From Acidobacteriota bacterium (GTDB lineage Bacteria > Acidobacteriota > Blastocatellia > Pyrinomonadales > Pyrinomonadaceae): a stretch of 64,000 nucleotides of DNA. Where the stretch lies: assembly GCA_016715115.1 (NCBI GenBank), contig JADKBM010000013.1:423475-487474 (forward strand), read 5' to 3'. The notes under the pieces were generated by a model. It made no database searches. It was not told the origin of the DNA and saw nothing but the letters and a program-made list of their open reading frames with translations. Positions 27,895 through 60,717 of this stretch are shown here, in pieces. The translations under genes were made by a program, and so were the position numbers. Within the stretch, counting starts at the first letter, position 1. Each line of letters begins with the position of its first letter.

Positions 27895-28452
27895 GGATTT
27901 CTGATTTCGGATTTTGGATTGTCAGAAACCGACGCGTTCAATTGTATGCCCCGGCTTCACAATCAACAAGTATTTCGGCAAGCCAAGGTCCAAAATCCAG
28001 ATTTCAGATTCCAGATTCCAGATTCCAGAGATTCCAGAGATTCCAGATTCCAGATTTCAGATTCCAGAGATTCCAGATTCCAGATTCCAGAGATTCCAGA
28101 TTCCAGATTCCAGATTCCAGAAATTCCAGATTCCAGATTTCAGATTCCAGATTCCAGAAATTCCAGATTCCAGAGATTCCAGATTCCAGATTCCAGAGAT
28201 TCCAGAAATTCCAGATTTCAGATTCCAGATTTCAGATTCCAGAAATTCCAGATTCCAGAGATTCCAGAAATTCCAGATTCCAGATTCCAGAGATTCCAGA
28301 AATTCCAGATTCCAGATTCCAGAGATTCCAGATTCCAGAGATTCCAGATTCCAAGAATTCAACATCTTCCAGATTCAATGGAATTTGGAATTTGGAATTT
28401 GGAATCTGGAATATCTGAAATCCCAAATCCCAAATCCCAAATCCCAAATCCA
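27895..28452. repeat. Largest array: 46 tandem 7/9-nt units (AGATTCC / AGAGATTCC / AGAAATTCC) with nested inverted arms
   Basis: My parse of 28001-28355 gives 29 heptamers, 16 nonamers and 1 terminal 8-mer. Inverted short arm GGAATTT/GGAATCT at 28378-28413. (CCCAAAT)n at 28414-28451 pairs with GGATTTCTGATTTCGGATTTTGGATT at 27895-27920. Confidence 0.95.
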
Positions 28453-28453
28453 G

Positions 28454-29737
28454 CTAGTCTCGCCTTCCGTTCCCGTCGAGCGCCGTGTAGACATCGTCGG
28501 TGTAAAGTCCGAGCCATTTGTCGGCGTCGGGAGTTTTGAACAGATCGGAGTAGATCGTCGAATTGAAGTTCTCGAGCAGGAACTTGCCTCTAAAATTGTT
28601 GAGCCGGCGAATCAACTCGGTATGAAGAAGAAAGTCGTTGCGCGTCGTATCGAGCGCGACGATCGTTTTCAGTTTCGAGATCATATTCTCGAATTGCCGT
28701 GCTTCAAGTTCGCGGTTCTGGCGTTTAATGAACGCCAGGCTCGAAGCGTCGAGATCGATCGTGCCGGCATATTCGGCTGCGAGTTTTTGCCAGTCGCCGG
28801 ACGGGATCTGCGGTTCGAATCGGGCGAAATTATCGTCGAGATCACGAAGAATCGTCGCCTCGGTCGCCATTTTAGTTACCGCGATCGGCCCGATGTCGAT
28901 CGCTCTAGCAGTTTTCGGCTCTTCGGCTTCTTTGAGGACGACCTTGGTCCTGGCGATCGCGTCTTCGCGTCGCGAACGGATCGAATAGAACTGGTTTCGC
29001 CGATAGCCATTCAACGCCGGTCCGCGCCTTTCGGCCGGAGTGTTCAAGAGTTGCGCCGAGAAATCGTGTCCTCTCGTCAGATAACCGAGAAATGCGCCCG
29101 GATCATAGAGTCCAGGAAGCGCGTCGATAACTTCAGCGTCGGGCGAGAGAATGTAATGGATGCTGTTGCCGGTCAATGTCCGTTCGAGCTTGCGGCCGTC
29201 GCCGAAATCGATCGTCACTTTCGGGGCCGGACGAACCGATTTCCAGTGGAGAACGTAGTTTTCGCGAAGATAGCGTGAAATCGAAGAATTCGAATAAAGC
29301 AACGCGCGAAAGAATCTCGAATTCGCGCAGCTGAATTCCTCGTTGAGATTTCCCAGAAGTCTGAGCGACAGGATCGGCTTGTTCGTGCGTTTTGCCTCAG
29401 CGACCGCCTCGTTCAGGTCGGTATGCCAGAAAAGCCTCGACGCGTAAACATCCTTCTGCATCGCGACCGAATCGAGTGCGGACGTGATCAGCGGCCAGTC
29501 GCCATCGGGCTTGCTAGACTTCGTGAAGGTTGCGATCTCGGCGGAATAAGCATCGAAAAGGGCGTTCAAACCTTCAACTCCCATCGATCGCAATTCGCGG
29601 ATCGCCACGGCACGTTCGTTTTCGTTTTCGGAGACCGCGCCGCGGACAAGTTCGGCCCGCGTTTTTGAGAACGCCGAGACGGCCAAAACCTGAACGAGCG
29701 CGAAAACCAGCAAAAATCTGAGACCTTTATTCTTCAT
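28454..29737 (-). CDS. Secreted hypothetical protein with thioredoxin-fold-like segment lacking CxxC
   Basis: The ATG at 29737 (GAGGAG upstream) gives MKNKGLRFLLVFALVQVLAVSAFS. The segment WHTDLNEAVAEAKRTNKPILSLRLLGNL resembles DUF255/thioredoxin-like proteins. No firm family call. Confidence 0.6.
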   Translation of the reverse strand: MKNKGLRFLLVFALVQVLAVSAFSKTRAELVRGAVSENENERAVAIRELRSMGVEGLNALFDAYSAEIATFTKSSKPDGDWPLITSALDSVAMQKDVYASRLFWHTDLNEAVAEAKRTNKPILSLRLLGNLNEEFSCANSRFFRALLYSNSSISRYLRENYVLHWKSVRPAPKVTIDFGDGRKLERTLTGNSIHYILSPDAEVIDALPGLYDPGAFLGYLTRGHDFSAQLLNTPAERRGPALNGYRRNQFYSIRSRREDAIARTKVVLKEAEEPKTARAIDIGPIAVTKMATEATILRDLDDNFARFEPQIPSGDWQKLAAEYAGTIDLDASSLAFIKRQNRELEARQFENMISKLKTIVALDTTRNDFLLHTELIRRLNNFRGKFLLENFNSTIYSDLFKTPDADKWLGLYTDDVYTALDGNGRRD

Positions 29738-46613: not shown

Positions 46614-48038
46614 ATGTACGAATTTGCCGTTACACCGGCCGTTACACAAGTCAGACGCGCCGGCGTGATCATTACGGATGTCGCTCCGGACTCTCTCGGC
46701 GTCGAGCTCGGACTTGAAAGCGGTGACCGCATCGTCAAGGTGAACGGGCGTTCGATCCGCGATTATCTCGATTTTCGATTCCAGACGTCTGGTGAGACCG
46801 AACTCGAATTCACCGTCAAGAAATCAAACGGCGAGACCTGGGAGATCGAACTCGATCGGGAAGAAGGTGAAGATTTCGGGCTCGGATTCGAACAGATCGT
46901 GCCGCGCCAATGCGCCAACGAATGTCTTTTCTGCTTCTGCAAGGGAAATCCCGAAGACGCGCGTCCGTCGCTTTTCGTGCGCGACGAAGATATCCGGCTC
47001 TCGTTTTTGTACGGGAATTACACGACGCTCTCGTCGATCACGCCCGACGAGATGAAGCGGATCGTCGAACAACGCCTGTCGCCGCAGTACGTTTCGGTCC
47101 ACGCGACGGATCTCAAGACGCGTGCCTATCTGCTTGGTGTCGATGAAAAACGGGCGGACATTTCCGACAAACTTCAGTTTCTTTTGGACAACGATATCGA
47201 GATCCACGCGCAGGTCGTACTCTGTCCGACGATCAATGACGGCGCACAGCTTGAGAAGACGCTGCGCGATCTGGCGGCGAGCTATCCGAAGGTTATCTCG
47301 ACGGCCGTCGTTCCGGTCGCGCTGACGCGCTACAACAAAGACGACCGACTGACGCGCGTGACGCCAGAATTCTGTCGCGCGACGATCAAGCAAGTCGAGA
47401 AGCTGCAGAAGGAATTTCGCAAAGAGCTGGGCGCAACGTTCGCTTTTCTCGGTGACGAGATCTACATTAAGGCGGGCGCACCGATCCCTTCGCGGCGGCA
47501 TTACGGAAACTATCCGCAGATCGAAGACGGCGTCGGGATGATCCGTTCGTTTCTGAACAGGTTCGAGAAGCTTGTCGGAACCTTGAATGGCGGCGGCGCA
47601 TTGACGAAACGCTCCAATCGAATCGACGCCCGGACCCATCTCGCCGCGTTCGTGCCGGAAAATCTAAAATCCAAAATCCAAAATCCAAAATCGAAAACCG
47701 GATCGATCCTGACCGGCGAAATGTTCGCGCCGATCCTCAGAACCGAAATCGAAAAGATCAATGCTTTGACGGGCGCGAGATTGAGCGTCCTTGCGGTTCC
47801 CAACACGTATTTCGGCGGTGATGTTTCGGTCTCGGGCCTGCTCACCGGACAGGATTATCTGGCCGTCAGGGGACAGGTCACGGGCGATTTTGTGATTATC
47901 CCGAAACATACGATCAAATCGGACGAACCGATTTTGCTCGACGGAATGACGTTCGACCAACTGAAGGAATCGTTCGAAGTTCCGATCTATGCCTTCGATC
48001 TTGAGGAACTCGCCGCCTTTGCGTTGAAGCTAAAGTAG
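46614..48038 (+). CDS. PDZ + radical-SAM-like + DUF512 protein (TIGR03279-type putative FeS enzyme)
   Basis: 474 aa. N-terminal PDZ (GLESGDRIVKVNG), a Cx3Cx2C motif (CANECLFC) and a DUF512-like C-terminus. It contains a 42-nt in-frame heptamer array (ENLKSKIQNPKSKT). Confidence 0.75.
   Translation: MYEFAVTPAVTQVRRAGVIITDVAPDSLGVELGLESGDRIVKVNGRSIRDYLDFRFQTSGETELEFTVKKSNGETWEIELDREEGEDFGLGFEQIVPRQCANECLFCFCKGNPEDARPSLFVRDEDIRLSFLYGNYTTLSSITPDEMKRIVEQRLSPQYVSVHATDLKTRAYLLGVDEKRADISDKLQFLLDNDIEIHAQVVLCPTINDGAQLEKTLRDLAASYPKVISTAVVPVALTRYNKDDRLTRVTPEFCRATIKQVEKLQKEFRKELGATFAFLGDEIYIKAGAPIPSRRHYGNYPQIEDGVGMIRSFLNRFEKLVGTLNGGGALTKRSNRIDARTHLAAFVPENLKSKIQNPKSKTGSILTGEMFAPILRTEIEKINALTGARLSVLAVPNTYFGGDVSVSGLLTGQDYLAVRGQVTGDFVIIPKHTIKSDEPILLDGMTFDQLKESFEVPIYAFDLEELAAFALKLK
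47659..47700. repeat. In-frame intragenic heptamer array (6 units, 42 nt) in the DUF512 gene
   Basis: aaaatct aaaatcc aaaatcc aaaatcc aaaatcg aaaaccg, translated as NLKSKIQNPKSKT. Confidence 0.85.
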
Positions 48039-48442: not shown

Positions 48443-49444
48443 TCAGGTTCCCGTCGAACCGTCGACGCTGTGCTTCGAATCGTCGGAAATATCGATCTCG
48501 GTCCAGTTTAGGCGCTTGACGAACTTTCGTTTGCGGACGTCGCAATCGGTTTTCGTGCAGATCTCGCAGGACGATTCAACGCAGGGGTCGGTGTGAACAA
48601 ACATCTCGATGCTCTCGCCGAATTTGGTGTCAATCAGCCGTTCGAGATCGTCGACGTCTTCGTGCGCATCTCGTGTGGTCAGATACCACGGCACCGTCAG
48701 ATGGCAGTCGATGTGCAGCGTGTTGCCGTATTTGATGATGCGGAGATTATGGAGGTCGATCCAATTGTCGCGGCGCGATTCTTCGAGGGTCGCGACGACC
48801 CTTTTCAGAAGTTCTTCGTCGGCCTCGTCCATAATCCCCGCGATCGAACCGCGGAGAATCTTGTAACCGGTGTAGATGATCACGCCGCCGAAGATCAGCG
48901 CGACCACGCTGTCAAGCCAGGCGAGTTTCGTAAACAGGATCAGGATGAGTCCGATGATGATGCCGATCGTTGAGTATGTGTCGGACTGCAAATGCTTTCC
49001 GCTCGCGACGAGGGCCAGTGAATTGTTCTTTTTGCCTTTTCTGACGGCAATGGCACCGACACCGTAATTGACGAAGGCCGTAATCGTGACGAGGATGATT
49101 CCGTAATCGAGCGAACCGATCTCGTGCGGGTGCCAGAGGTTATTGATGGCTTCATAAATGATCACGAGACCGGCGACGGCGATCAGTGTTCCCTCGATCG
49201 CCGCCGAGACGAATTCGACCTTGCCGTGACCGTAGGGGTGATTCGCGTCGCGCGGCTGGGCCGAAAGATAAAGACTGTAAAGCCCGACGAAGCCGGCGGT
49301 GACGTTGATCGTGCTCTCAAGCGCGTCGGTCAGGATCGCTACCGAATTCGTCAGATACCACGCGATGAATTTGATAACGAACAGCGCAACCCCGACCGCG
49401 GCGACGATCTTTTGAAAATTGTAGTTTTCTCGTGAGACTTCCAA
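48443..49444 (-). CDS. Cation diffusion facilitator (CDF) family metal efflux transporter with Cys-rich C-terminal tail
   Basis: The core matches CDF: IKFIAWYLTNSVAILTDALESTINV...HPYGHGKVEF...LQSDTYST. The start is uncertain (TTG at 49444 proposed). The ORF-track start at 49741 runs through the heptamer array. Confidence 0.7.
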   Translation of the reverse strand: MEVSRENYNFQKIVAAVGVALFVIKFIAWYLTNSVAILTDALESTINVTAGFVGLYSLYLSAQPRDANHPYGHGKVEFVSAAIEGTLIAVAGLVIIYEAINNLWHPHEIGSLDYGIILVTITAFVNYGVGAIAVRKGKKNNSLALVASGKHLQSDTYSTIGIIIGLILILFTKLAWLDSVVALIFGGVIIYTGYKILRGSIAGIMDEADEELLKRVVATLEESRRDNWIDLHNLRIIKYGNTLHIDCHLTVPWYLTTRDAHEDVDDLERLIDTKFGESIEMFVHTDPCVESSCEICTKTDCDVRKRKFVKRLNWTEIDISDDSKHSVDGSTGT

Positions 49445-49475
49445 GCTAATTTGATTGTAGATCGTTGAGCGCGAA

Positions 49476-49686
49476 TTGTTAATTTCGGATTCAAGATTCA
49501 AGAAAGATTTCAGATTCCGGATTCCAGGTATCCGGATTCCAGCGTTTAGGATTCCAGATTCCAGGATTCCAGGATTCCAGGATTCCAGGATTCCAGATTC
49601 CAGATTCAAGATTTCAGATTCCAAGAATTCAAGATTCCAAGAATTCAAGAATGATTCAAGATTCCAGGATTCCAGGATTCCAAGAG
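49476..49686. repeat. Heptamer array (GGATTCC / AGATTCC / AGATTCA family)
   Basis: Runs such as ggattccaggattccaggattccaggattccagattccagattcaagatttcagattcc. It lies upstream of the CDF gene start. Confidence 0.9.
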
Positions 49687-49965
49687 CCTGTCGGAAAAAT
49701 CGATTCAGTGTGCGGAGCAAACGCACATACGATAGCACCACGCGAAGCGGAGCGGAACGTGGTGTCAGCCGCGATCACCTCCAGCGAGCGTGTGAAACAC
49801 GCGGAACTGTTGCAAAAACGAGAGTTACGCGTGTTACACACGCTTAGGACGTCGGTTAGACAAGCCACCACGTTCCGCTCCGCTTCACGTGGTGTTATCG
49901 CAAGTTCGCGTGCTTCGCACGCTTGAAGAAGTAATGCCCGTTCCCAAACGGCTTTCTCCGACAGG
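49687..49965. repeat. About 279-nt nested palindromic element (possible structured RNA or MITE-like element)
   Basis: The outer arms are cctgtcgga (49687-49695) and tccgacagg (49957-49965). The 34-nt arms are gatagcaccacgcgaagcggagcggaacgtggtg (49731-49764) and caccacgttccgctccgcttcacgtggtgttatc (49866-49899), with 2 mismatches. At least four GCGTG-type mini-hairpins are present: tgtgcggagcaaacgcaca, gcgtgtgaaacacgc, gcgtgttacacacgc and gcgtgcttcgcacgc. Confidence 0.8.
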
Positions 49966-50085
49966 TTCCCAAGATCCAGATTCAAGATCCAAGATTCCAA
50001 GGATTCCAAATCCAGATTCCAAATTCCAGATTCCAGATCCGAATTCAAGATTCCAGAATTTCAAGGGTTCCAGATTGGGATCCCG
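49966..50085. repeat. Degenerate heptamer array (AGATTCC / AGATCCA family)
   Basis: ttcccaagatccagattcaagatccaagattccaaggattccaaatccagattccaaattccagattccagatccgaattcaagattccag. Confidence 0.85.
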
Positions 50086-50104
50086 AATCGCGTTGCAATC
50101 GCGT

Positions 50105-50213
50105 CGAGTCGGTACCATCTGCGGTAGCGGATGGTTGGTTGCGGCACTCGCGGACCGCAGTATTGATACCAACCTATCTTCAACCATCCGCTACCGCAGA
50201 TGGTACCGACTCG
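50105..50213. repeat. Perfect 33-bp inverted repeat with 43-nt spacer
   Basis: cgagtcggtaccatctgcggtagcggatggttg (50105-50137) and caaccatccgctaccgcagatggtaccgactcg (50181-50213). The spacer holds a small hairpin, tgcgg...ccgca. Confidence 0.9.
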
Positions 50214-50249
50214 TCCCGACCCCGCATACAAAGAACCCGTGGGTTTTTC

Positions 50250-50392
50250 AAAGCTCCAGATTCAAGATTCCAGATTGAAGGATCTCGAGTCCGGGCGTTT
50301 TAGATTTCTTGAATCGTGGAATCTGGAATCTTGGAATCGAAAATCCCAAATCCCAAATCCCAAATCCCAAATCCCAAATCCCAAATCCCAAA
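50250..50392. repeat. Heptamer arrays ending in (CCCAAAT)x7, abutting the xdhC stop
   Basis: ccagattcaagattccagattgaag...ggaatctggaatcttggaatcg, then 7 CCC tracts at 50345-50389. The final aaatca supplies the TGA of xdhC (50393-50395). Confidence 0.9.
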
Positions 50393-51421
50393 TCAGCGGT
50401 TCTTGACCGCGATGATCTCGGCCGCGATCGATATGGCGATCTCTTCAGGCGTTCGGCTGTTGATCGGAAGCCCGATCGGCGTCCGGATCCGTTTTAGCCG
50501 TTCGCCTTCGAAACCCTCCTTTTTCAATGAGTTCAGCAGAACCTTCATCTTGGCCTTGCTTCCCAAAACCCCGAAGTATTTGAAGTTCTTGTCAACAAGG
50601 CGACGGATGACGATCTCGTCGAAGCGGTATCCGAGCGTCATTGCGACGACGTAATGGTCCTCGCCGGAGTCGATCATCTGGTCGATCGACTCGTATGAGT
50701 CAATGATCGTTTTGCGATCCGCGAAGACGTTCTTCTCGACCGTGTTGAGTTCGTTTCGGTCATCGAACAACTCGATGTGAAAATCGAGTTTCGCCATCAA
50801 CTCCGAAAGTGCAAGCGCGCAATGCCCGCCGCCGACGATGAAAAGTCTCGGCTTTCGACCGATCGTTTCTTCATAAACGAACTTCGAAGCTCCGCCCTTA
50901 GAAGTTCCGCCGTATGGAGTTCCGCCTTCAGGCGGCCCTTCCTCCGCCACCCAGAACCCGATTTCCGACGAACCGAAGTCATCGGAGATCGCCAGCCCGC
51001 GTTCAGTGATCTTGAACCGGATCACCCGCGATTCGCCGAGCGCGTCGCAAATCGCACGTACCGTCGGCAGATCACCCGCGTCGAGCGCGCAGACGATCAC
51101 CGTCTGGCTTCCCGAGCAGATCATCCCGCTCGCGTCCGGAACATTCGGCCGGTGAACAAGCGTTTGGATTTTGGATTTTGGATTTTGGACTTCGGATTCG
51201 TCGGTGCGATCGTTGCGCGCTTGATCGACGAGCGCAACCTCCATCACACCGCCGCCGATCGAGCCAATCATTTCGTCATCGGCGACAACCATTTTGAATC
51301 CCGCGCGGCCGGGCGAACTGCCTGAACTCTCGGCGACGACGATCAAGATCGCGCGTTCGCCCGAATCCAGACGTTCGCGGGCAAAGTTCCAGAGTTCCGA
51401 TTCAAACCTCATTCGATGCAT
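50393..51421 (-). CDS. xdhC: XdhC/CoxI family molybdenum-cofactor insertion accessory protein
   Basis: ATG at 51421 (or 51412). The N-domain reads AILIVVAESSGSSPGRAGFKMVV and the C-terminal Rossmann reads RLFIVGGGHCALALSELM. It carries in-frame repeat insertions (QNPKSKIQ; PPEGGTPYGGTSKGGASK). Confidence 0.8.
   Translation of the reverse strand: MHRMRFESELWNFARERLDSGERAILIVVAESSGSSPGRAGFKMVVADDEMIGSIGGGVMEVALVDQARNDRTDESEVQNPKSKIQTLVHRPNVPDASGMICSGSQTVIVCALDAGDLPTVRAICDALGESRVIRFKITERGLAISDDFGSSEIGFWVAEEGPPEGGTPYGGTSKGGASKFVYEETIGRKPRLFIVGGGHCALALSELMAKLDFHIELFDDRNELNTVEKNVFADRKTIIDSYESIDQMIDSGEDHYVVAMTLGYRFDEIVIRRLVDKNFKYFGVLGSKAKMKVLLNSLKKEGFEGERLKRIRTPIGLPINSRTPEEIAISIAAEIIAVKNR
50882..50937. 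repeat. Intragenic (xdhC) 15-nt x3 tandem repeat overlapping the 22-nt hairpin element
   Basis: The sense strand reads GGCGGAACTCCATAC GGCGGAACTTCTAAG GGCGGAGCTTCGAAG (GGTPY GGTSK GGASK). GGAGTTCCGCCTTCAGGCGGCC at 50916-50937 is identical to 52359-52380. Confidence 0.8.
51167..51208. repeat. In-frame intragenic heptamer array in xdhC
   Basis: ggatttt ggatttt ggatttt ggacttc ggattcg (tcggtgc), translated on the minus strand as ESEVQNPKSKIQ. Confidence 0.8.
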
Positions 51422-51531
51422 TTTACTTCGTTTTCTGTCTGATCGCGACGGGTACTCGGACGTTGCCCGAACTGCGGGCCAACGCCGGAGCGCGGGTTGA
51501 AGAAGGCCAGATTGTGCGTTAAGGAAGTGTC

Positions 51532-51708
51532 TTTCCCGCGAAATACGCCAAAGGCGCGAAAAATGGCATTCTTTCACCTTGTTCTTCGGAAAATTCGCGG
51601 GAAGTTCCTTCAACCCAGATTACTCATTAAACTCAATTTCCCGCGAAATACCCAAAAACAACATCAAAAATGGCATTTTTGCGGTTTTGGCGTGTTTCGC
51701 CGGAAAGA
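51532..51708. repeat. Two tandem copies of a TTTCCCGCGAAATAC hairpin element between xdhB and xdhC
   Basis: Copy 1 is tttcccgcgaaatacgccaaaggcgcgaaaaatggcattc...ggaaaattcgcgggaag. Copy 2 is tttcccgcgaaatacccaaaaacaacatcaaaaatggcattt...gcgtgtttcgccggaaag. Confidence 0.7.
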
Positions 51709-51763
51709 GATTTTCTATTACGTAATTTGGGTTCAAATGCGTAAATTCGGATTTGGCCGACCG

Positions 51764-53980
51764 TTACGATCCGTACAGATTCATCAGGATCTTTTCCGGA
51801 GTCAACGGCGCGTCGAATGGCGGCAAACTCTCTTGATTGAATGCTTTGACGGCTTCGCGGAGGGCGAAATAGGCGCCGATGCCGTACATCAGGGGCGGTT
51901 CGCCGACGGCCTTTGAATTGAAAACCGCGAGATTTTCCTTGAGATTATCCAGCGAGACCACCTCGATCGTTTTCGGAGCCGAGTAAACATCGGGAATCTT
52001 GTAGGTTGAGAGCGCGTTCGAACGCAAACGGCCGATTTCATCGTAAACGACCTCTTCCATCGTCATCCAGCCGATTCCCTGAACGATGCCGCCCTCGATC
52101 TGACCGAGGTCGACCGCCGGGTTCATCGATTGACCGAAGTCGTGGCAAACCTTGACGTAATCGAATTCGTAGGTTCCGCGAAGGCAATCGACCGTAACGC
52201 CGACGATCGCCGTTCCATAAACGTGATATGCGAACGGATGGCCTTTGGCAACCGACCAGTCGAAACCGATTCCCGGCGTCGCGTAATGTGCGTGCTCGCT
52301 GAGATTGACGCGTCGCAAATGCGCCTCGTTCACAAGTTCGACCCAGCTCGGAGCGCTTGGAGTTCCGCCTTCAGGCGGCCTTCCAACCATCGATGCCTCA
52401 ACTTCCTTTAGCCTTTCAAGAATCGTCCCGCAGGCGATCGCCGTCGCCTTGCCGTTCAGATCGGCCGCCGCCGAAGCCGCCGTCGGCGACGTGTTGGCGA
52501 TCCGCAAAGTATTGGTCGTGTGGACCTTGATAAATCCGATCGGGATGCCGAAGACGTTCGCCGCGACCTGTGCGATCTTGGTGTTCACGCCCTGTCCCAT
52601 TTCGACCGCGCCGGTCGAAACCGCGACCGTTCCGTCGGTGTAAACGTGGACCAGCGAACGCGCCTGGTTCATCGGCGTTTTAGTGAACGAGATCCCGAAA
52701 CAGACGGGCTGGATGGCGACGCCTTTTTTCAGATACTTGCTCGATGCATTGAATTCAAACGCATCGCGTTTGAGACGTTCGAATTCGTATTTCGCGTCGG
52801 CCTGCATCCAGCTTGTTTCGGCCTCGGATTCAGCGATCTGGCCGTACGGGAATTCGTCGCCGGTCTTTAGGAGATTGCGGCGTTGGACCTCGTCTTTCGC
52901 GACGCCGAGCTTCTCGGCAGCGTGCGCGATCGCCGATTCGATGACGAACATTCCCTGCGGTCCGCCGAATCCCCGAAAAGCCGTGTTCGGCGGCAGGTTC
53001 GTCTTGCAAGAATAGGCGACGGCCGAAACGTTCGGGATAAAATACGAGTTCGAGCAGTGGAAAAGCGTGCGTTCGAGAACCGGAAGCGAGAGGTCGCACG
53101 CCGCGCCTGCGTTTTGGAAGAAGGTCACGTCATACGCGACGATCTTCAGATCGGCATCGAGCCCGATTCTGTAATCGGCCGAGTACGGATGCCGTTTTCC
53201 GGTCATCCGCATATCATCCATCCTGTGCAGCGCGAATTTCACCGGACGCCTTGTGATCTGTGTGCCGACGGCGCAAATGGCCGCCCAAGCGTTTGCCTGA
53301 TCTTCCTTGCCCCCGAAGCCGCCGCCGAGTCTCGTCACGTCGACCTCGATCAGATTCATCGGCAGCGCCGTAACCCTCGCAACCGCGCGCTGGACCGCCG
53401 TCGGACCCTGTGTCGACGAATAAACGCGGATTCCGTCGCTCTCGGCCGGAATCGTAAAGGCGCCCTGAGTTTCGATGTACAGATGCTCCTGGCCGCCCGA
53501 ATGGGTGCGGCCTTCGAAAACGTGCGCGCAGCTCTTGAGTGCCGATTCGGCGTCGCCGAGTTTGAATCGTTTCGGCGGCGCGATCAGGCTGTTTCTTGCA
53601 AATGCCTCGCGTTCATCGGTGATCGCTTCGAGCGGTTCGATCTCGACCGAGATCAGTTTCGCCGCGGCACGCGCCTGCTCGTCCGTTTCGGCGAGCACGA
53701 TGGCGATCGGCATTCCGCAGAAATGAACTTCGTCTTCCGCAAGCAGGGGTTCGTCCGGCAAGATGCCGCCGATCTGATTCTCGCCGACAAGATCCTTTGC
53801 GGTGATAACCCGTGCGACGCCTTTTGCAGTTTCCGCTTTGCTCGTGTTGAGGGCCGTGATTCGACCGTGGGCAACCGGCGAGTCGAAAACGCACGCGAAA
53901 AGCGTCCCTTCGACGACCGGAATATCGTCGAGATAAACCGATTCGCCGCGTACATATGATTTTGAGTCAAGGTTTTTCAT
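51764..53980 (-). CDS. xdhB: Xanthine dehydrogenase / aldehyde oxidase molybdopterin-binding subunit
   Basis: 738 aa. GESVYLDDIP..., GGGFGGKE and conserved Mo-hydroxylase blocks. It carries an in-frame 22-nt element (RPPEGGTPS). Confidence 0.9.
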   Translation of the reverse strand: MKNLDSKSYVRGESVYLDDIPVVEGTLFACVFDSPVAHGRITALNTSKAETAKGVARVITAKDLVGENQIGGILPDEPLLAEDEVHFCGMPIAIVLAETDEQARAAAKLISVEIEPLEAITDEREAFARNSLIAPPKRFKLGDAESALKSCAHVFEGRTHSGGQEHLYIETQGAFTIPAESDGIRVYSSTQGPTAVQRAVARVTALPMNLIEVDVTRLGGGFGGKEDQANAWAAICAVGTQITRRPVKFALHRMDDMRMTGKRHPYSADYRIGLDADLKIVAYDVTFFQNAGAACDLSLPVLERTLFHCSNSYFIPNVSAVAYSCKTNLPPNTAFRGFGGPQGMFVIESAIAHAAEKLGVAKDEVQRRNLLKTGDEFPYGQIAESEAETSWMQADAKYEFERLKRDAFEFNASSKYLKKGVAIQPVCFGISFTKTPMNQARSLVHVYTDGTVAVSTGAVEMGQGVNTKIAQVAANVFGIPIGFIKVHTTNTLRIANTSPTAASAAADLNGKATAIACGTILERLKEVEASMVGRPPEGGTPSAPSWVELVNEAHLRRVNLSEHAHYATPGIGFDWSVAKGHPFAYHVYGTAIVGVTVDCLRGTYEFDYVKVCHDFGQSMNPAVDLGQIEGGIVQGIGWMTMEEVVYDEIGRLRSNALSTYKIPDVYSAPKTIEVVSLDNLKENLAVFNSKAVGEPPLMYGIGAYFALREAVKAFNQESLPPFDAPLTPEKILMNLYGS
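52359..52380. repeat. 22-nt hairpin element inside xdhB, identical to the copy in xdhC
   Basis: GGAGTTCCGCCTTCAGGCGGCC (stem CCGCC/GGCGG, loop TTCA) is translated in frame as PPEGGTP. Confidence 0.85.
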
Positions 53981-53992
53981 TACGAATTAGAT

Positions 53993-54470
53993 GGTAGACG
54001 GTAGACGGTAGACGGTAGAGGGTAGACGGTAGACGGTAGAGGGTAGACGGTAGACGGTAGACGGTAGAGGGTAGACGGTAGACGGTAGAGGGTAGACGGT
54101 AGAGGGTAGACGGTAGACGGTAGACGGTAGACGGTAGACCGCCAACCTCTCACTGCTCACCTCTCACCTCTCACCTCTCACTGCTCACCTCTCACTGCTC
54201 ACCTCTCACTGCTCACCTCTCACTGCTCACCTCTCACTGCTCACCTCTCACCGCTCACCTCTCATTGCTCACCTCTCACTCACTGCTCACCTCTCACCTC
54301 TCACCTCTCACCGACCACTGACCACCGACCACTGACCACCGACCACTGCTCACTGCTCACCGCTCACCGCTCACCGCTCACTGCTCACCGCTCACTGCTC
54401 ACCGCTCACCGCTCACTGCTCACCGCTCACCGCTCACCGCTCACCGCTCACCGCTCACCGCTCACTGCCA
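53993..54470. repeat. Composite heptamer arrays filling the xdhA-xdhB spacer
   Basis: 21 units of GGTAGAC/GGTAGAG (53993-54139). Then CTCTCAC/TGCTCAC units (about 54147-54310), CGACCACTGACCAC units (about 54311-54347) and GCTCACC/GCTCACT units (to about 54470) that include the xdhA stop and last codons. Confidence 0.95.
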
Positions 54471-55899
54471 CGAAGTGCGCCCGGAAAAGCTGGCGCGCCA
54501 ACAGACGTTTGTATTCGGCCGAACCGCGAACGTCGGAGATCGGCGCGATCTCCGTTTGCAGGATCGCCTCCGCTTCTTCGAGGATCGCATCGTTGATCGG
54601 TTTTCCGCTCAGGAACGCCGAGGTCTTTCTTAACAACAAAGGCGTCGGCGCGACCCCGCCGATCGAGACGCGCGCCGTTTCGACAACATCGCCCGAAAGC
54701 CTGAGCGCGATCGCCGTATTAACAGAAGCGATGTCAAGATAGGTTCGTTTCGAGACCTTTTCAAAATTGAAATGCGTGAAATCCTTGCGAATTGAGATCT
54801 TCGAAATGATCTCCGACTCAACCTTTGCGAGCTGCTTGTAACCCAAATACAAATCAGATAACGCAATGTTCCGAATTCCGAAATCCGAATTCCCAATTCC
54901 GAAATCGCGTAGTTCCAATTCGGCGTCGAGCGCCAGAAAAAAGACCGTCATATCGCCGATCGGCGAGGCATTTACAAAATTGCCGGCGAGCGTCGCCATA
55001 TTCCTGATCGGCGTCGACGAAACCAATTTCAAATACTTGTCAAGGTTCGGAAAAAGCCGATGGAAGACTTCAGACTCGAGCAAGTCGGTGACGACGACAG
55101 ACGGGCCGATCTCGACCGTTTCGTCGGTCTCGCGGATGAACCGAAGCGCAGGATCGTCAAACAAACTCGTCGCACCCGCGTGGACCATTTCGTCGTGCTT
55201 CTGAACGTAAAGGTCCGTGCCGCCGGCGACGAATCTTGGGGTGGTGATTTCGGATGATACGGATTTCAGACCTTCGGAGTCGGGATGTTCGCGCACCAAC
55301 AATTCGAGACGCCGCCCGATGGATTCGAAATATTTCGGAACCGCACCGGCGGCGATCGCCTTCTCGATTTGCGACTGTGACTTGTTGAGCATCGCATTGC
55401 CGAAATCCGAAATCCCAAATCCCAAATCCGAAATCCTCTCGCACGCCCGCTCGATCGACTTGTAACCCGTGCAGCGGCAAATGTTTCCGTCGATCGCCGC
55501 AACCACCGATTCTTTGGTTTTCTGACCGTCGCCGAGGCAAAAACCGGTCAGAGACATCACGAATCCAACCGTGCAGAATCCGCATTGAGTTCCGGATTCG
55601 TCGACCAACGCTGCCTGCGCGGGTGTCAGGCTTCCGTCGGCCGGGTTGATTCCTTCGACAGTCACGATATGCTTGCCGCGCGCATTCAAGAGCGGCATCA
55701 GGCACGATGTCATCGAACGATATCTGAGGTCTCCGTCCTTGAGTTCACCGACGAGGATCGTGCACGCCCCGCAATCCCCTTCGCGGCAGCCGATCTTCGT
55801 TCCCTTCAGATTCTTGTGATACCGAACAAAGTCGAGCACCGTCGTTCCGCCTGGGAGATCGGTTTCGACGGATTGATTGTTGAGAATAAATTCGATCAT
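54448..55899 (-). CDS. xdhA: Xanthine dehydrogenase small subunit (2x [2Fe-2S] + FAD-binding domains)
   Basis: The ATG at 55899 gives MIEFILNNQSV. Contains CREGDCGACT, CGFCTVGFVMS and CRCTGYKSI, then FAD_binding_5-like VAGGTDLYV. There are two in-frame heptamer insertions, and the last codons are repeat-encoded. Confidence 0.85.
   Translation of the reverse strand: MIEFILNNQSVETDLPGGTTVLDFVRYHKNLKGTKIGCREGDCGACTILVGELKDGDLRYRSMTSCLMPLLNARGKHIVTVEGINPADGSLTPAQAALVDESGTQCGFCTVGFVMSLTGFCLGDGQKTKESVVAAIDGNICRCTGYKSIERACERISDLGFGISDFGNAMLNKSQSQIEKAIAAGAVPKYFESIGRRLELLVREHPDSEGLKSVSSEITTPRFVAGGTDLYVQKHDEMVHAGATSLFDDPALRFIRETDETVEIGPSVVVTDLLESEVFHRLFPNLDKYLKLVSSTPIRNMATLAGNFVNASPIGDMTVFFLALDAELELRDFGIGNSDFGIRNIALSDLYLGYKQLAKVESEIISKISIRKDFTHFNFEKVSKRTYLDIASVNTAIALRLSGDVVETARVSIGGVAPTPLLLRKTSAFLSGKPINDAILEEAEAILQTEIAPISDVRGSAEYKRLLARQLFRAHFVAVSGER
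54871..54909. repeat. In-frame intragenic heptamer-type array in xdhA (FAD domain)
   Basis: ccgaattccgaaatccgaattcccaattccgaaatcgcg, translated on the minus strand as RDFGIGNSDFGIR. Confidence 0.75.
55401..55436. repeat. In-frame intragenic heptamer array in xdhA (linker after the 2Fe-2S domains)
   Basis: cgaaatc cgaaatc ccaaatc ccaaatc cgaaatc c, translated on the minus strand as SDLGFGISDFG. Confidence 0.8.
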
Positions 55900-55907
55900 T
55901 ATTCCAG

Positions 55908-56030
55908 CCACGAATCGCACCAATTTCACGAACGCAACCCTTTATGCGACGTTGTTGATCCAACCGCCAAAAGCGCGGCGCATCAGGTGCGTTCCTGAAA
56001 AAACAGTCGTGAAATTCGTGCGATTCGTGG
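55908..56030. repeat. 23-bp inverted repeat (1 mismatch) with 77-nt spacer, immediately upstream of xdhA
   Basis: ccacgaatcgcaccaatttcacg (55908-55930) and cgtgaaattcgtgcgattcgtgg (56008-56030). The stem extends via gaacgca/tgcgttc. Confidence 0.85.
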
Positions 56031-56040
56031 CAAAGCGCAA

Positions 56041-59593: not shown

Positions 59594-59935
59594 ATGTCGG
59601 ATGTTAGATTCTCGGGTACCGTCGATCACCTGGCTCTGAAATGCGCCGACCTTGAGGAGGCGGTTGCGGAGTACAAACGGCTTGGGTTTTCGCTCGAGAC
59701 GATCTATGAAGATTGGGCGATGATGCGCGACGCTCGCGGTTTTGGCATCGCGCTGCTGCCGCCCGAGTCGAAGCATCCGCCGCACATCGGATTGCGCGTC
59801 GAATCGATGGAGGAACTTGAAAAAGCCGCCCGCGCCGAGGGCCGGCCGATCAAGCCGCACCGCGACGGAACCTCGTCGTTTTACACCAAAGGCGTCGACG
59901 GACAGATCATCGAATTGATCTGCTACCCGGAATGA
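59594..59935 (+). CDS. VOC (glyoxalase/bleomycin-resistance/dioxygenase) family protein
   Basis: ATG at 59594 preceded by GGAGGGAG. VDHLALKCADLEEAVAEYKRLGF...HIGLRV. Confidence 0.7.
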   Translation: MSDVRFSGTVDHLALKCADLEEAVAEYKRLGFSLETIYEDWAMMRDARGFGIALLPPESKHPPHIGLRVESMEELEKAARAEGRPIKPHRDGTSSFYTKGVDGQIIELICYPE

Positions 59936-60129
59936 TTTTGGATTTGCGATTTGCGATTTTGGATTCCAGATATTCCAGATATTCCAGATTCCAACATCGA
60001 AAATTCCAAATTCCAAATTCCAAATTCCAAATTCCAAATTCCAAAATCCAAAATCCAAAATCGCAAATCGCAAATCGCAAATCGCAAATCGCAAATCGCA
60101 AATCGCAAATCGCAAATTCCAAAATCGAA
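59936..60129. repeat. Composite heptamer array between the VOC gene stop and the glycosylase start
   Basis: gattttg gatttgc gatttgc gattttg, then gattcca/gatattcca units, then aaattcc x6, aaaatcc x2-3, aaatcgc x8, and finally aaaatcgaa-ATG. The 5' arm is the reverse complement of the 3' AAATCGC block. Confidence 0.95.
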
Positions 60130-60717
60130 ATGCTTGCCCGTCAATTCTATCTTCGTACCGACACGCTCGCGATCGCCAGGGATCTGATCGGTAAACTGCT
60201 CATCGTTCAGGATCCCGAACACGGACGCGTGTCCGGGATGATCGTCGAAACCGAGGCGTATCTCGGTGAGATCGACAGGGCGGCGCATTCCTACGGCGGG
60301 CGGCGAACGGCGCGAAACGAGATCACCTACGCGGCCGGCGGTCATACTTACGTCTTTTTCGTTTACGGAATGTACTTTCAGCTCAACATCGTCTGCGGTC
60401 CCGAAGACTCGCCGCATGTTTGTCTGATCCGCGCCGTCGAACCCGTCGAAAACATCGAACTGATGCGCGAACGGCGAAAGACCGTGCAGGATCTGAATTT
60501 GACTTCGGGACCCGGAAAATTATGCGTCGCCCTCGGTATCAACAAAAGCTTTAACGGCGCGGATCTGCTCGGAAATCGAATTTGGCTGGAAGATTTTCGT
60601 ACAGTCGGCGGGGAAGAGGTCGGAAGCGGGAAACGCGTCGGCATCGATTACGCCGGGGAATTCGCCGCCAAACCCTGGCGCTTCTGGTTGAAAGGGAACA
60701 AGTTCGTGTCGCGTTGA
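60130..60717 (+). CDS. DNA-3-methyladenine glycosylase (Mpg/AAG family)
   Basis: The ATG at 60130 gives MLARQFYLRTDTLAIARDLIGKLL...IVETEAYLG..DRAAHSYGGRRT.RNE.....GGH.YVYF.YGM. The ORF-track start at 59932 is pure repeat sequence. Confidence 0.85.
   Translation: MLARQFYLRTDTLAIARDLIGKLLIVQDPEHGRVSGMIVETEAYLGEIDRAAHSYGGRRTARNEITYAAGGHTYVFFVYGMYFQLNIVCGPEDSPHVCLIRAVEPVENIELMRERRKTVQDLNLTSGPGKLCVALGINKSFNGADLLGNRIWLEDFRTVGGEEVGSGKRVGIDYAGEFAAKPWRFWLKGNKFVSR

Follow-up and report, generated by a model that had tools for sequence, protein, structure and literature searches.

Heptanucleotide arrays inside the xanthine dehydrogenase genes of a Pyrinomonadaceae genome: shared sites, constant length and turnover of the repeat unit

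Among long simple repeats, heptanucleotides have been described as the most frequent class in many bacteria, with polymerase slippage as their suggested origin, according to what PMC4679880 and PMC4692102 report of Mrazek 2007. An excess of heptamers is known from cyanobacteria, as the short tandemly repeated repetitive (STRR) sequences, and from Xanthomonas, Burkholderia and Beggiatoaceae, where they are mainly intergenic and under-represented in coding regions (PMC4692102, PMC4679880). We analysed a 64-kb stretch of DNA (contig JADKBM010000013.1; the whole stretch is called the window in what follows) from a metagenome-assembled genome (MAG) of Pyrinomonadaceae (Acidobacteriota, Blastocatellia), a soil or sludge acidobacterium, in which heptamer arrays lie in frame within xdhA and xdhC, two genes of a xanthine dehydrogenase (XDH) operon, and within a DUF512/radical-SAM gene. 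What is new here is that the same few sites carry arrays across the bacterial family, with a repeat unit that is species-specific and homogeneous and with a length that is constant.

The STRR repeats of Calothrix and Nostoc, the GGGNATC repeats of Xanthomonas and the GGGGAYT repeats of Nostoc (Rehm 2015, PMC4692102) share with the arrays of the window a genome-wide excess of period 7, a mostly intergenic position, often in opposed pairs, and a length polymorphism among close relatives. The units are also alike, GGGATTT here and GGGAATC or GGGGATT in the STRR-type repeats. They differ in that a subset of the arrays lies here inside conserved enzymes, at fixed sites common to a bacterial family, and in that the host is an acidobacterium. 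The TAACTGA heptamers of marine Beggiatoaceae and some cyanobacteria are partly located in open reading frames (ORFs), in a stop-free orientation encoding the peptide LSVISYQ, and were read as tolerated insertions (MacGregor 2015, PMC4679880). They resemble our arrays as heptamers within ORFs that encode a 7-aa periodic peptide, but they consist of a single unit, are found for the most part in hypothetical ORFs or at the ends of proteins, do not recur at conserved internal positions, and no concerted evolution or turnover of units has been described for them.

The Rickettsia palindromic elements (RPEs) are found as in-frame insertions in unrelated metabolic genes, where the protein fold allows them (review PMC10969869). 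The likeness concerns the small hairpin element that xdhB and xdhC contain, and with it the elements of the SEPPAVAGGL type in the relatives; the RPEs are dispersed palindromes of about 150 bp, while the heptamer arrays are tandem, 21-40 nt long, made of many different units and without palindrome, and the hairpin elements measure only about 27 nt. The contingency loci of Haemophilus, Neisseria and Campylobacter (units of 1-5 nt, occasionally 7) also combine a non-triplet in-frame repeat with slippage, but they have long pure tracts and ON/OFF alleles among isolates and are mostly surface or restriction-modification genes, none of which holds here. Lin and Kussell (2012) did not treat heptamers, and our search of the literature found no report of heptamer repeats in Acidobacteria or Blastocatellia, nor of intragenic sites that stay fixed while the unit turns over and the length is constant. 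A strong heptamer process like that of cyanobacteria and Xanthomonas is documented here for a phylum of soil and wastewater that has received little study, and in this lineage it reaches conserved enzymes.

Sites, frame and length of the in-gene arrays

Arrays were detected with Tandem Repeats Finder (TRF) and with a period scan of our own, and 1000 codon shuffles served as the null. The period-7 arrays of the window are intergenic or overlap gene ends when the array list is compared with the long ORFs, except for the four internal arrays listed here together with a further site of xdhA.

55400..55436, minus strand: array A1 in xdhA; (GGATTTN) x5.3 with 93% matches (TRF); RISDLGFGISDF; encodes SDLGFGISDFG
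54869..54909, minus strand: array A2 in xdhA; GGAATTC/GGATTTC, about 5 units with 85% matches; encodes RDFGIGNSDFGIR
51163..51198, minus strand: array C1 in xdhC; (CCAAAAT) x5.1 with 89% matches (TRF); encodes EVQNPKSKIQ
47659-47692, plus strand: DUF512 array, within the DUF512/radical-SAM gene at 46614-48038; AAAATCC units, in frame; encodes LKSKIQNPK
55230..55255, minus strand: site A1b in xdhA, just before FVAGGTD; no array in the window genome

Arrays A1, A2 and C1 are all in frame within ORFs that carry the full XdhA or XdhC sets of Pfam domains. The period-7 part of A2 extends from 54869 to 54903 and the array reaches 54921 at period 21, the peptide RDFGIGNSDFGIR being encoded by 54909-54871, and the peptide ESEVQNPKSKIQ of C1 is encoded by 51199-51164. 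Codon shuffling of xdhA, xdhC and the DUF512 gene yielded a period-7 array in none of 1000 rounds, and the period scan revealed no array of any other period from 4 to 10 in these three genes. The window copy of xdhB was free of heptamer arrays, as were all 142 of its orthologs. The original prediction had described the three arrays of xdhA and xdhC, which are real, in frame and translated as it gave them, its coordinates for the xdhC array (51167-51208) being off by a few bases. It had also counted exactly 6 units in the DUF512 array; we measured 34-39 nt, which is 4.9-5.6 units.

The comparisons were made on a first set of orthologs (56 XdhA, 65 XdhC and 79 XdhB, taken from 80 genomic loci and then aligned) and on a larger set of 162 loci, which gave 148 XdhA, 94 XdhC and 142 XdhB. 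The alignments and the AlphaFold2 models (mean predicted local distance difference test score, pLDDT, of 79.9 for XdhA and 83.9 for XdhC) placed the arrays in loops or linkers. In the 56 XdhA orthologs, A1 falls in hypervariable linker columns after the second Fe-S motif, between the FeS and FAD domains, and in the model it is an unstructured stretch that begins where helix 146-158 ends, pLDDT falling under 50 at residue 162 and beyond. Site A1b, which in the window genome is possibly a decayed array, has pLDDT below 50 at residues 209-220. A2 is the turn of a beta-hairpin of the FAD domain, modelled as a loop between strands 327-332 and 342-346; it is 9 aa longer than in the shortest orthologs, which have a four-residue turn (VVFN-TNREI), and 6 aa longer than in Rhodobacter capsulatus XdhA. 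C1 lies in the loop that joins helix 59-71 to strand 83-90 in the XdhC model and adds 4 aa relative to Bacillus halodurans 3on5. The DUF512 array lies in the linker between RTHxxAxxP and GTILTGEMFAPI, which in more than 20 related species carries other heptamer peptides (such as NRQSSIVNRQS and NYKSEISNYKS) or the hairpin-element peptide PPATAGGSD.

A1, A2, C1 and the hairpin site of xdhB correspond to gaps in many orthologs, the frame being kept, and in the XdhA and XdhC alignments the array segments are wholly absent from the Bacteroidota orthologs. The prediction that these segments are lineage-specific insertions agrees with their position in gapped or hypervariable columns rather than in columns conserved family-wide, and its idea of surface loops is borne out by the alignments with Protein Data Bank (PDB) structures, by the models and by the pLDDT values.

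We then compared the length of the arrays among strains. The 90%-identity clusters contained 4 XdhA and 5 XdhC sequences from different assemblies, with about 99% identity, and two strain loci (L081 and L082) of 21 kb each were aligned to the window, with nucleotide identities of 99.1-99.4%. The array lengths were identical in the 4 XdhA and in the 5 XdhC, all five of which are 339 aa long, and the only length difference of XdhA was at its C-terminus. The multi-base indels between the window and L081/L082 (60049-60062, 59966, 54443-54463, 54246-54354, 54027-54076, 50390 and 49597-49668) all lie within intergenic heptamer arrays, at least seven of which vary, and no indel was found in the four in-gene arrays against L081 or L082. 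Slippage is thus active in this lineage, while the in-gene arrays are stable at the timescale of strains, since every multi-base indel falls in an intergenic array. Strain-level substitutions were not enriched in the in-gene arrays (3/83, p = 0.33). The tracts also differ in length within the same window, the in-gene arrays having 5.0-5.3 units at 85-93% matches versus up to 22-46 units for the intergenic ones.

The same stability was observed between species. The nearest species in the XdhA comparison (locus L001, 76% XdhA identity) has homologous arrays, with no difference in length at A2 or C1, and carries the homologous peptide LDLGIGISDC at A1. The orthologs of the 162 loci contained 70 period-7 arrays in the 148 XdhA and 35 in the 94 XdhC, and all 105 were in frame; six tblastn matches were broken, and none of the breaks coincided with an array. 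The only clean length changes at C1 were in loci L015 (-21 nt) and L053 (+21 nt), which is exactly three units. The original prediction had reasoned that only arrays of about 3n units can persist in a coding sequence; the net change is indeed a multiple of 3 nt, ±21 nt in the clean cases, but the arrays themselves have 3-5.3 units and not 3n.

Turnover of the repeat unit at constant length was most apparent at C1. Twelve species carry an insert of identical length and register at this site, with a unit that is specific to the species (AATTACG, AATGGAA, AATTCAA or AAGGCAA, each nearly perfect within its own species). The identity between units was 0.857 within a species versus 0.646 for units at the same position in different species, a difference reached in 0 of 5000 permutations. 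C1 is a case of concerted evolution at constant length. At a second site of XdhC, C2, arrays overwrite the conserved L-x-I-S-x-x-x-F-x-I beta-hairpin with no change in length, some species reading QISNFKFQIS there and others RITNYELRI or RIANCELRI.

The preference for seven nucleotides extends beyond the operon. The window contains 28 period-7 arrays versus 0-5 for periods 5, 6, 8 and 9, and 161 related loci (1.48 Mb) contain 208 versus 0-10 for periods 5, 6 and 8-11, a more than 20-fold excess. Periods 6 and 9 would be neutral for the reading frame, yet period 7 dominates. Per kilobase, the density of arrays was 0.35 in xdhA, 0.47 in xdhC, 0 in xdhB, about 0.02 in other ORFs and at least 0.3 in non-coding DNA; xdhA and xdhC are therefore at the non-coding level, about 20 times that of other ORFs. 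Across the family, we counted three in-gene sites in XdhA (A1, A1b and A2), two in XdhC (C1 and C2), one in DUF512 and none in XdhB. In an independent sample from the protein database, perfect segments with a 7-aa period were present in 7 of 120 XdhA and 11 of 120 XdhC, and almost none had another period. Some relatives have inserts of 30-70 aa at the hot-spot sites (L034 at C1, L007 and L030 at C2, L029 and L045 at A2), which appear to be built of nested repeat elements, with peptides such as SPPYEGG and GTQAPSPA.

Explanations for the in-gene arrays

The probable explanation, in our judgement, is a slippage process of 7 nt acting throughout the lineage, whose arrays survive only in tolerant loops and have their length locked by the reading frame. 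A shift of the nascent strand by a single 7-nt register, whether by slippage or by a short-lived template switch, would both make arrays out of quasi-periodic sequence and spread new variants through existing arrays. Within genes, gaining or losing a net one or two units would be a frameshift purged by selection; an in-gene array, unlike an intergenic one, would thus be unable to shrink stepwise and would persist for long at an unchanged length as its units are replaced. Since 3 and 7 share no factor, the 7-residue periodic peptide of a stop-free heptamer array is the same in whichever of the three frames it is read, and a stop-free unit may thus be tolerated at any codon phase, provided that the protein accepts extra residues in a loop. 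The in-gene arrays would then be passengers in loops, which they lengthen or rewrite seven residues at a time, and not regulatory switches.

Several points weigh against this explanation. We infer the 7-nt misalignment and the frame-locking from patterns. AAAATCC and AAATCCC, the commonest units, account for 33 of 210 arrays, a skew that purely local slippage leaves unexplained and that hints at some preference for certain sequences or at spread from site to site. The counts across species are phylogenetically non-independent, and a small number of old events may lie behind the high density in xdhA and xdhC. The strain genomes are three to five consensus assemblies, from which low-frequency length variants within a population would escape; the test for variants of ±7 nt rests on three to five MAGs because no relative at strain level turned up when metagenomes were scanned with XdhA (best match 66%). 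Homogenisation at constant length could also run via -1/+1 unit slippage through transient OFF alleles, a route that would amount to slow phase variation and that the data do not separate from length-neutral conversion.

The rival proposed in the original prediction was that xdhA and xdhC are contingency loci, in which the gain or loss of one heptamer toggles the gene and gives a heritable, reversible switch of purine catabolism. A heptamer is not a multiple of three, so a change of one unit does shift the frame, the heptamer arrays of this lineage vary in copy number between 99%-identical strains, slippage in a terminal array alters the C-terminal tail of XdhA among strains, and the concerted evolution of the in-gene arrays shows that misalignment recurs there. 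These arrays are however short and impure beside known switches, no length variant was seen in the strain-level proteins or at L081/L082, where at least seven intergenic arrays vary, the 105 ortholog arrays are without exception in frame, and array length is unchanged in a species with 76% XdhA identity; the xdh genes are moreover housekeeping catabolic genes with neither a surface nor a restriction function. Rare variants within populations are still conceivable, but the comparative data argue against contingency behaviour, which we regard as quite unlikely. The part of the idea that survives is a slow, cryptic phase variation, because homogenisation may pass through short-lived -1/+1 frameshifted alleles. 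[quoted passage not shown] The AAAATCC/GGATTTN family is shared by xdhA, xdhC, the DUF512 gene and several intergenic arrays of the window, and no unit is more frequent when all loci are taken together; one and the same hot-spot site holds a different class of repeat from lineage to lineage, xdhB and xdhC have indeed received true dispersed hairpin elements in frame, and the RPEs show that such insertion is feasible (PMC10969869). Against it, the 210 arrays comprise 93 distinct canonical units, for which reason a single mobile heptamer element was rejected; the C2 arrays replace a structured hairpin without added length; no terminal inverted repeats are apparent in the arrays, no search having been made for target-site duplications or a transposase; and homologous arrays agree in register and length from species to species while the unit differs, which indicates turnover in place and not repeated landing. 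Insertion of a mobile repeat is accordingly unlikely to our minds. The alternative in the original prediction, of tolerated loops left by a mobile repeat, came closer than the reading as contingency loci, although the heptamers are not quite mobile insertions; the dispersed hairpin element of xdhB and xdhC is genuine but had not been separated there from the heptamers.

Selection for the arrays themselves would mean that the 7-residue peptides (e.g. NPKSKIQ), or the mRNA structure of opposed arrays, serve the assembly or expression of XDH. The arrays do persist at the same sites family-wide, a heptamer sequence of the NPKSxIxNPK type before FVAGGTD, at A1b, is the majority in the 120 closest XdhA, and A1 (55405-55430) is 73% complementary to A1b (55230-55255), which lies 150 nt downstream, the minimum free energy (MFE) fold pairing both. 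On the other hand, the peptides at one site are wholly different between species (FKIQSSK, WKMENGK, LRITNYE, VKSKKAK) and both orientations occur, the segments lie in loops with low model confidence and are missing from Bacteroidota orthologs, and the identity of the repeats extends to synonymous positions, which points to a cause at the level of DNA; the A1/A1b pairing was rejected, 73% complementarity and a fold z-score of -2.1 being too weak. We hold selection for the arrays to be very unlikely. An artefact of assembly or sequencing might be suspected, the source being a MAG and tandem repeats being prone to assembly error, but the arrays are base-identical across three to five assemblies made independently for the species, and homologous arrays, always in frame, are found in dozens of unrelated assemblies from short and long reads, so its probability is negligible.

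The 7-nt slippage with a locked reading frame may be part of a broader picture, which we advance only tentatively: Pyrinomonadaceae would have a process of strict 7-nt register inside and between genes, its homogenisation at constant length would rewrite loops and the beta-hairpin of XdhC, and trapping of the arrays at the timescale of the family would create hot spots of radical, concerted amino-acid change. If this is true and if homogenisation uses -1/+1 intermediates, phase variation of a slow, cryptic kind would also take place at the array sites. The arrays are not a new regulatory system and are less striking than the reading as contingency loci implied; they are relevant to repeat dynamics and to protein evolution. 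A non-triplet repeat in a gene is not automatically a switch, and the comparative data speak here against one. The constant-length concerted evolution of non-triplet coding repeats is an unusual mode of protein evolution and a natural experiment on the interplay of replication misalignment and reading-frame selection.

In the closest species, site A1b carries a full NAAATCC array, which would pair with A1 as an inverted repeat within the mRNA. A G-quadruplex idea, after Rehm 2015, was rejected, most in-gene units (AATTACG, AATGGAA, TTCAAAA) being without G-tracts.

The xdhABC operon, its spacers and the hairpin repeats

The genes of the operon are the following.

54448..55899, minus strand: xdhA, 483 aa, subunit with two 2Fe-2S domains and an FAD domain; Pfam Fer2, Fer2_2, FAD_binding_5 and CO_deh_flav_C
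51764..53980, minus strand: xdhB, 738 aa, molybdopterin subunit; Pfam hammerhead and two molybdopterin-binding domains
50393..51421, minus strand: xdhC, 342 aa, molybdenum cofactor insertion chaperone; Pfam XdhC_CoxI and XdhC_C

XdhA is identical to NCBI MBK8812398.1, and a genome scan with XdhB placed the window in the Pyrinomonadaceae, with a nearest species at 85% XdhB identity. XdhC is 342 aa long from the start MHRMRF at 51421 and 339 aa long from the start called in two strain loci, at 51412. XdhA aligned end to end with R. capsulatus XdhA (1jro_A, E 1e-55), XdhB matched the rat, bovine and R. capsulatus XDH with E about 1e-160 (1jro_B, 2e-157), and XdhC matched the structures 3on5 (B. 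halodurans) and 2we7. The residues of the xanthine active site are kept in XdhB relative to rat XDH 1wyg, with the motifs GGFGGKE, ER.LFH, AFRGFGGPQ, FGISFT and GEPPL; the conserved residues correspond to E802, R880, F914, F1009 and E1261 of the bovine/rat enzyme.

The best NCBIfam match of xdhA was xanthine_xdhA (353 bits, under the cut-off of 467) and that of xdhB was xanthine_xdhB (785.5 bits, under 849.5). For xdhC, the top model was the XdhC-family aldehyde oxidoreductase maturation factor (198.8 bits, under 350), and xanthine_xdhC ranked second with 121.5 bits, under 161.6. All of these scores are below the curated cut-offs, and support for a xanthine dehydrogenase at the strictest threshold is therefore absent. 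The assignment to an XdhABC-type xanthine dehydrogenase, of the R. capsulatus type, is nevertheless well supported by the predicted architecture and active site, and the operon identity proposed from the sequence agrees with the Pfam domains and PDB alignments.

The spacers and neighbouring structures are listed below.

53988..54465, minus strand: xdhA-xdhB spacer, 467 nt; CGTCTAC x21.7 and GGTGAGC/GGTGAGA/GGTCAGT x46 (TRF)
54448..54468, minus strand: XdhA C-terminal tail AVSGER and stop, the last six codons and the stop lying within the first units of the intergenic GGTGAGC array
51422..51763, minus strand: xdhB-xdhC spacer; hairpin-forming inverted repeats, non-heptameric, including I7 (51585-51606 / 51635-51656)
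49460..50394, minus strand: spacer after xdhC; heptamer and octamer arrays at 50341-50394, 50258-50339, 49970-50057 and 49488-49685, alternating with two long hairpins
49707-49764 / 49866-49923: hairpin I1 after xdhC, arms of 58 nt, 84% complementary
50099-50137 / 50181-50219: hairpin I2 after xdhC, arms of 39 nt, 95% complementary
55907-55931 / 56007-56031, minus strand: inverted repeat I3, arms of 25 nt, 96% complementary, 75 nt apart

The xdhA-xdhB spacer consists almost wholly of heptamers, in two arrays (53988-54139 and 54145-54465), and its length, with the copy number, differs between strains, being 467 nt in the window, 316 nt in L081 and 310 nt in L082. The C-terminus of XdhA is VSGER, VSGEQ or VSGERAVSSER depending on the strain, with indels at 54443-54463, and is the one place where heptamer slippage visibly alters the protein. 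Hairpin I2 (50099-50219) contains the element CCATCTGCGGTAGCGGATGG, which sits in frame within genes of relatives. Inverted repeat I3 lies between the upstream DMT_YdcZ gene and the start of xdhA; it may be what is left of a MITE, a terminator or a hairpin with a regulatory role. In an Rfam scan of the spacers all matches stayed below threshold and were to miRNA precursors of plants and animals, an artefact of the hairpin shape, and no known RNA family was revealed; the sole match in the xdhB-xdhC spacer was a sub-threshold long hairpin at 51546-51692.

The original prediction had described all of these spacers as filled with structured repeats. The 467 nt between xdhA and xdhB hold up and are nearly pure heptamers, as does the repeat-rich stretch of about 950 nt after xdhC, with its arrays and two long hairpins. 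The 342 nt between xdhB and xdhC apply with the start at 51421 (351 nt with the start at 51412), the content being inverted repeats and not heptamers, and the 123 nt upstream of xdhA become 141 nt with the annotated ATG at 55899. The SDRs of Nostoc are reportedly hairpin-forming, dispersed sequences of 21-27 nt embedded among tandem heptamers. The mix of hairpins and heptamers after xdhC recalls them, as a lead only, in another phylum and with other sequences.

A second class of repeats, small and hairpin-forming, was found inside two genes of the operon.

52355..52385, minus strand: hairpin repeat in xdhB (18-mer 52362-52379); core GCCGCCTGAAGGCGGAAC; in frame, encodes GRPPEGGTPS
50882..50940, minus strand: hairpin repeat in xdhC (18-mer 50919-50936); core GCCGCCTGAAGGCGGAAC and a 15-nt triplication; encodes GPPEGGTPYGGTSKGGASK

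The 18-mer GCCGCCTGAAGGCGGAAC has 2 exact copies in the 64-kb window versus 0.19 expected, both in coding sequence, and its palindromic 14-mer core has 22 copies in the related loci versus 0.01 expected. The copy in xdhB is an insertion relative to rat XDH and to most orthologs. The copy in xdhC lies in the disordered linker between the two domains (pLDDT below 50 at residues 161-177), where many relatives have the same hairpin element. The hairpin elements include GCCGCCTGAAGGCGG and CTGCGGTAGCGG. The family with the core CTGCGGTAGCGG encodes SEPPAVAGGL, or HPLPQVVPT in the opposite orientation; in relatives it occupies the same hot-spot sites, and in the window it forms an intergenic inverted pair (50115-50134 / 50184-50203). 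With 2 exact and 22 core copies, GCCGCCTGAAGGCGGAAC is a many-copy hairpin, and the heptamer arrays have 93 units and no palindrome. By analogy with the RPEs, we regard the GCCGCCTGAAGGCGGAAC repeats (PPEGGTP) as an independent class, inserted in frame in xdhB and xdhC.

Elsewhere in the window, the largest array complex (27989-28451) comprises TCCAGAT in about 46 units and, after it, TGGAATT x4.9 and AAATCCC x4.9, and it fills the entire spacer between two minus-strand genes. Stop-free arrays are a hazard for annotation, as they give spurious long ORFs, false N-terminal extensions and lowered scores with family models. Long spurious ORFs of this kind are present at 27914-29278 and 59932-60717, both on the plus strand, and in the cation-efflux gene at 48443-49741, on the minus strand, an array gives a false N-terminal extension of about 100 aa, the strain annotations calling a protein of 333 aa.

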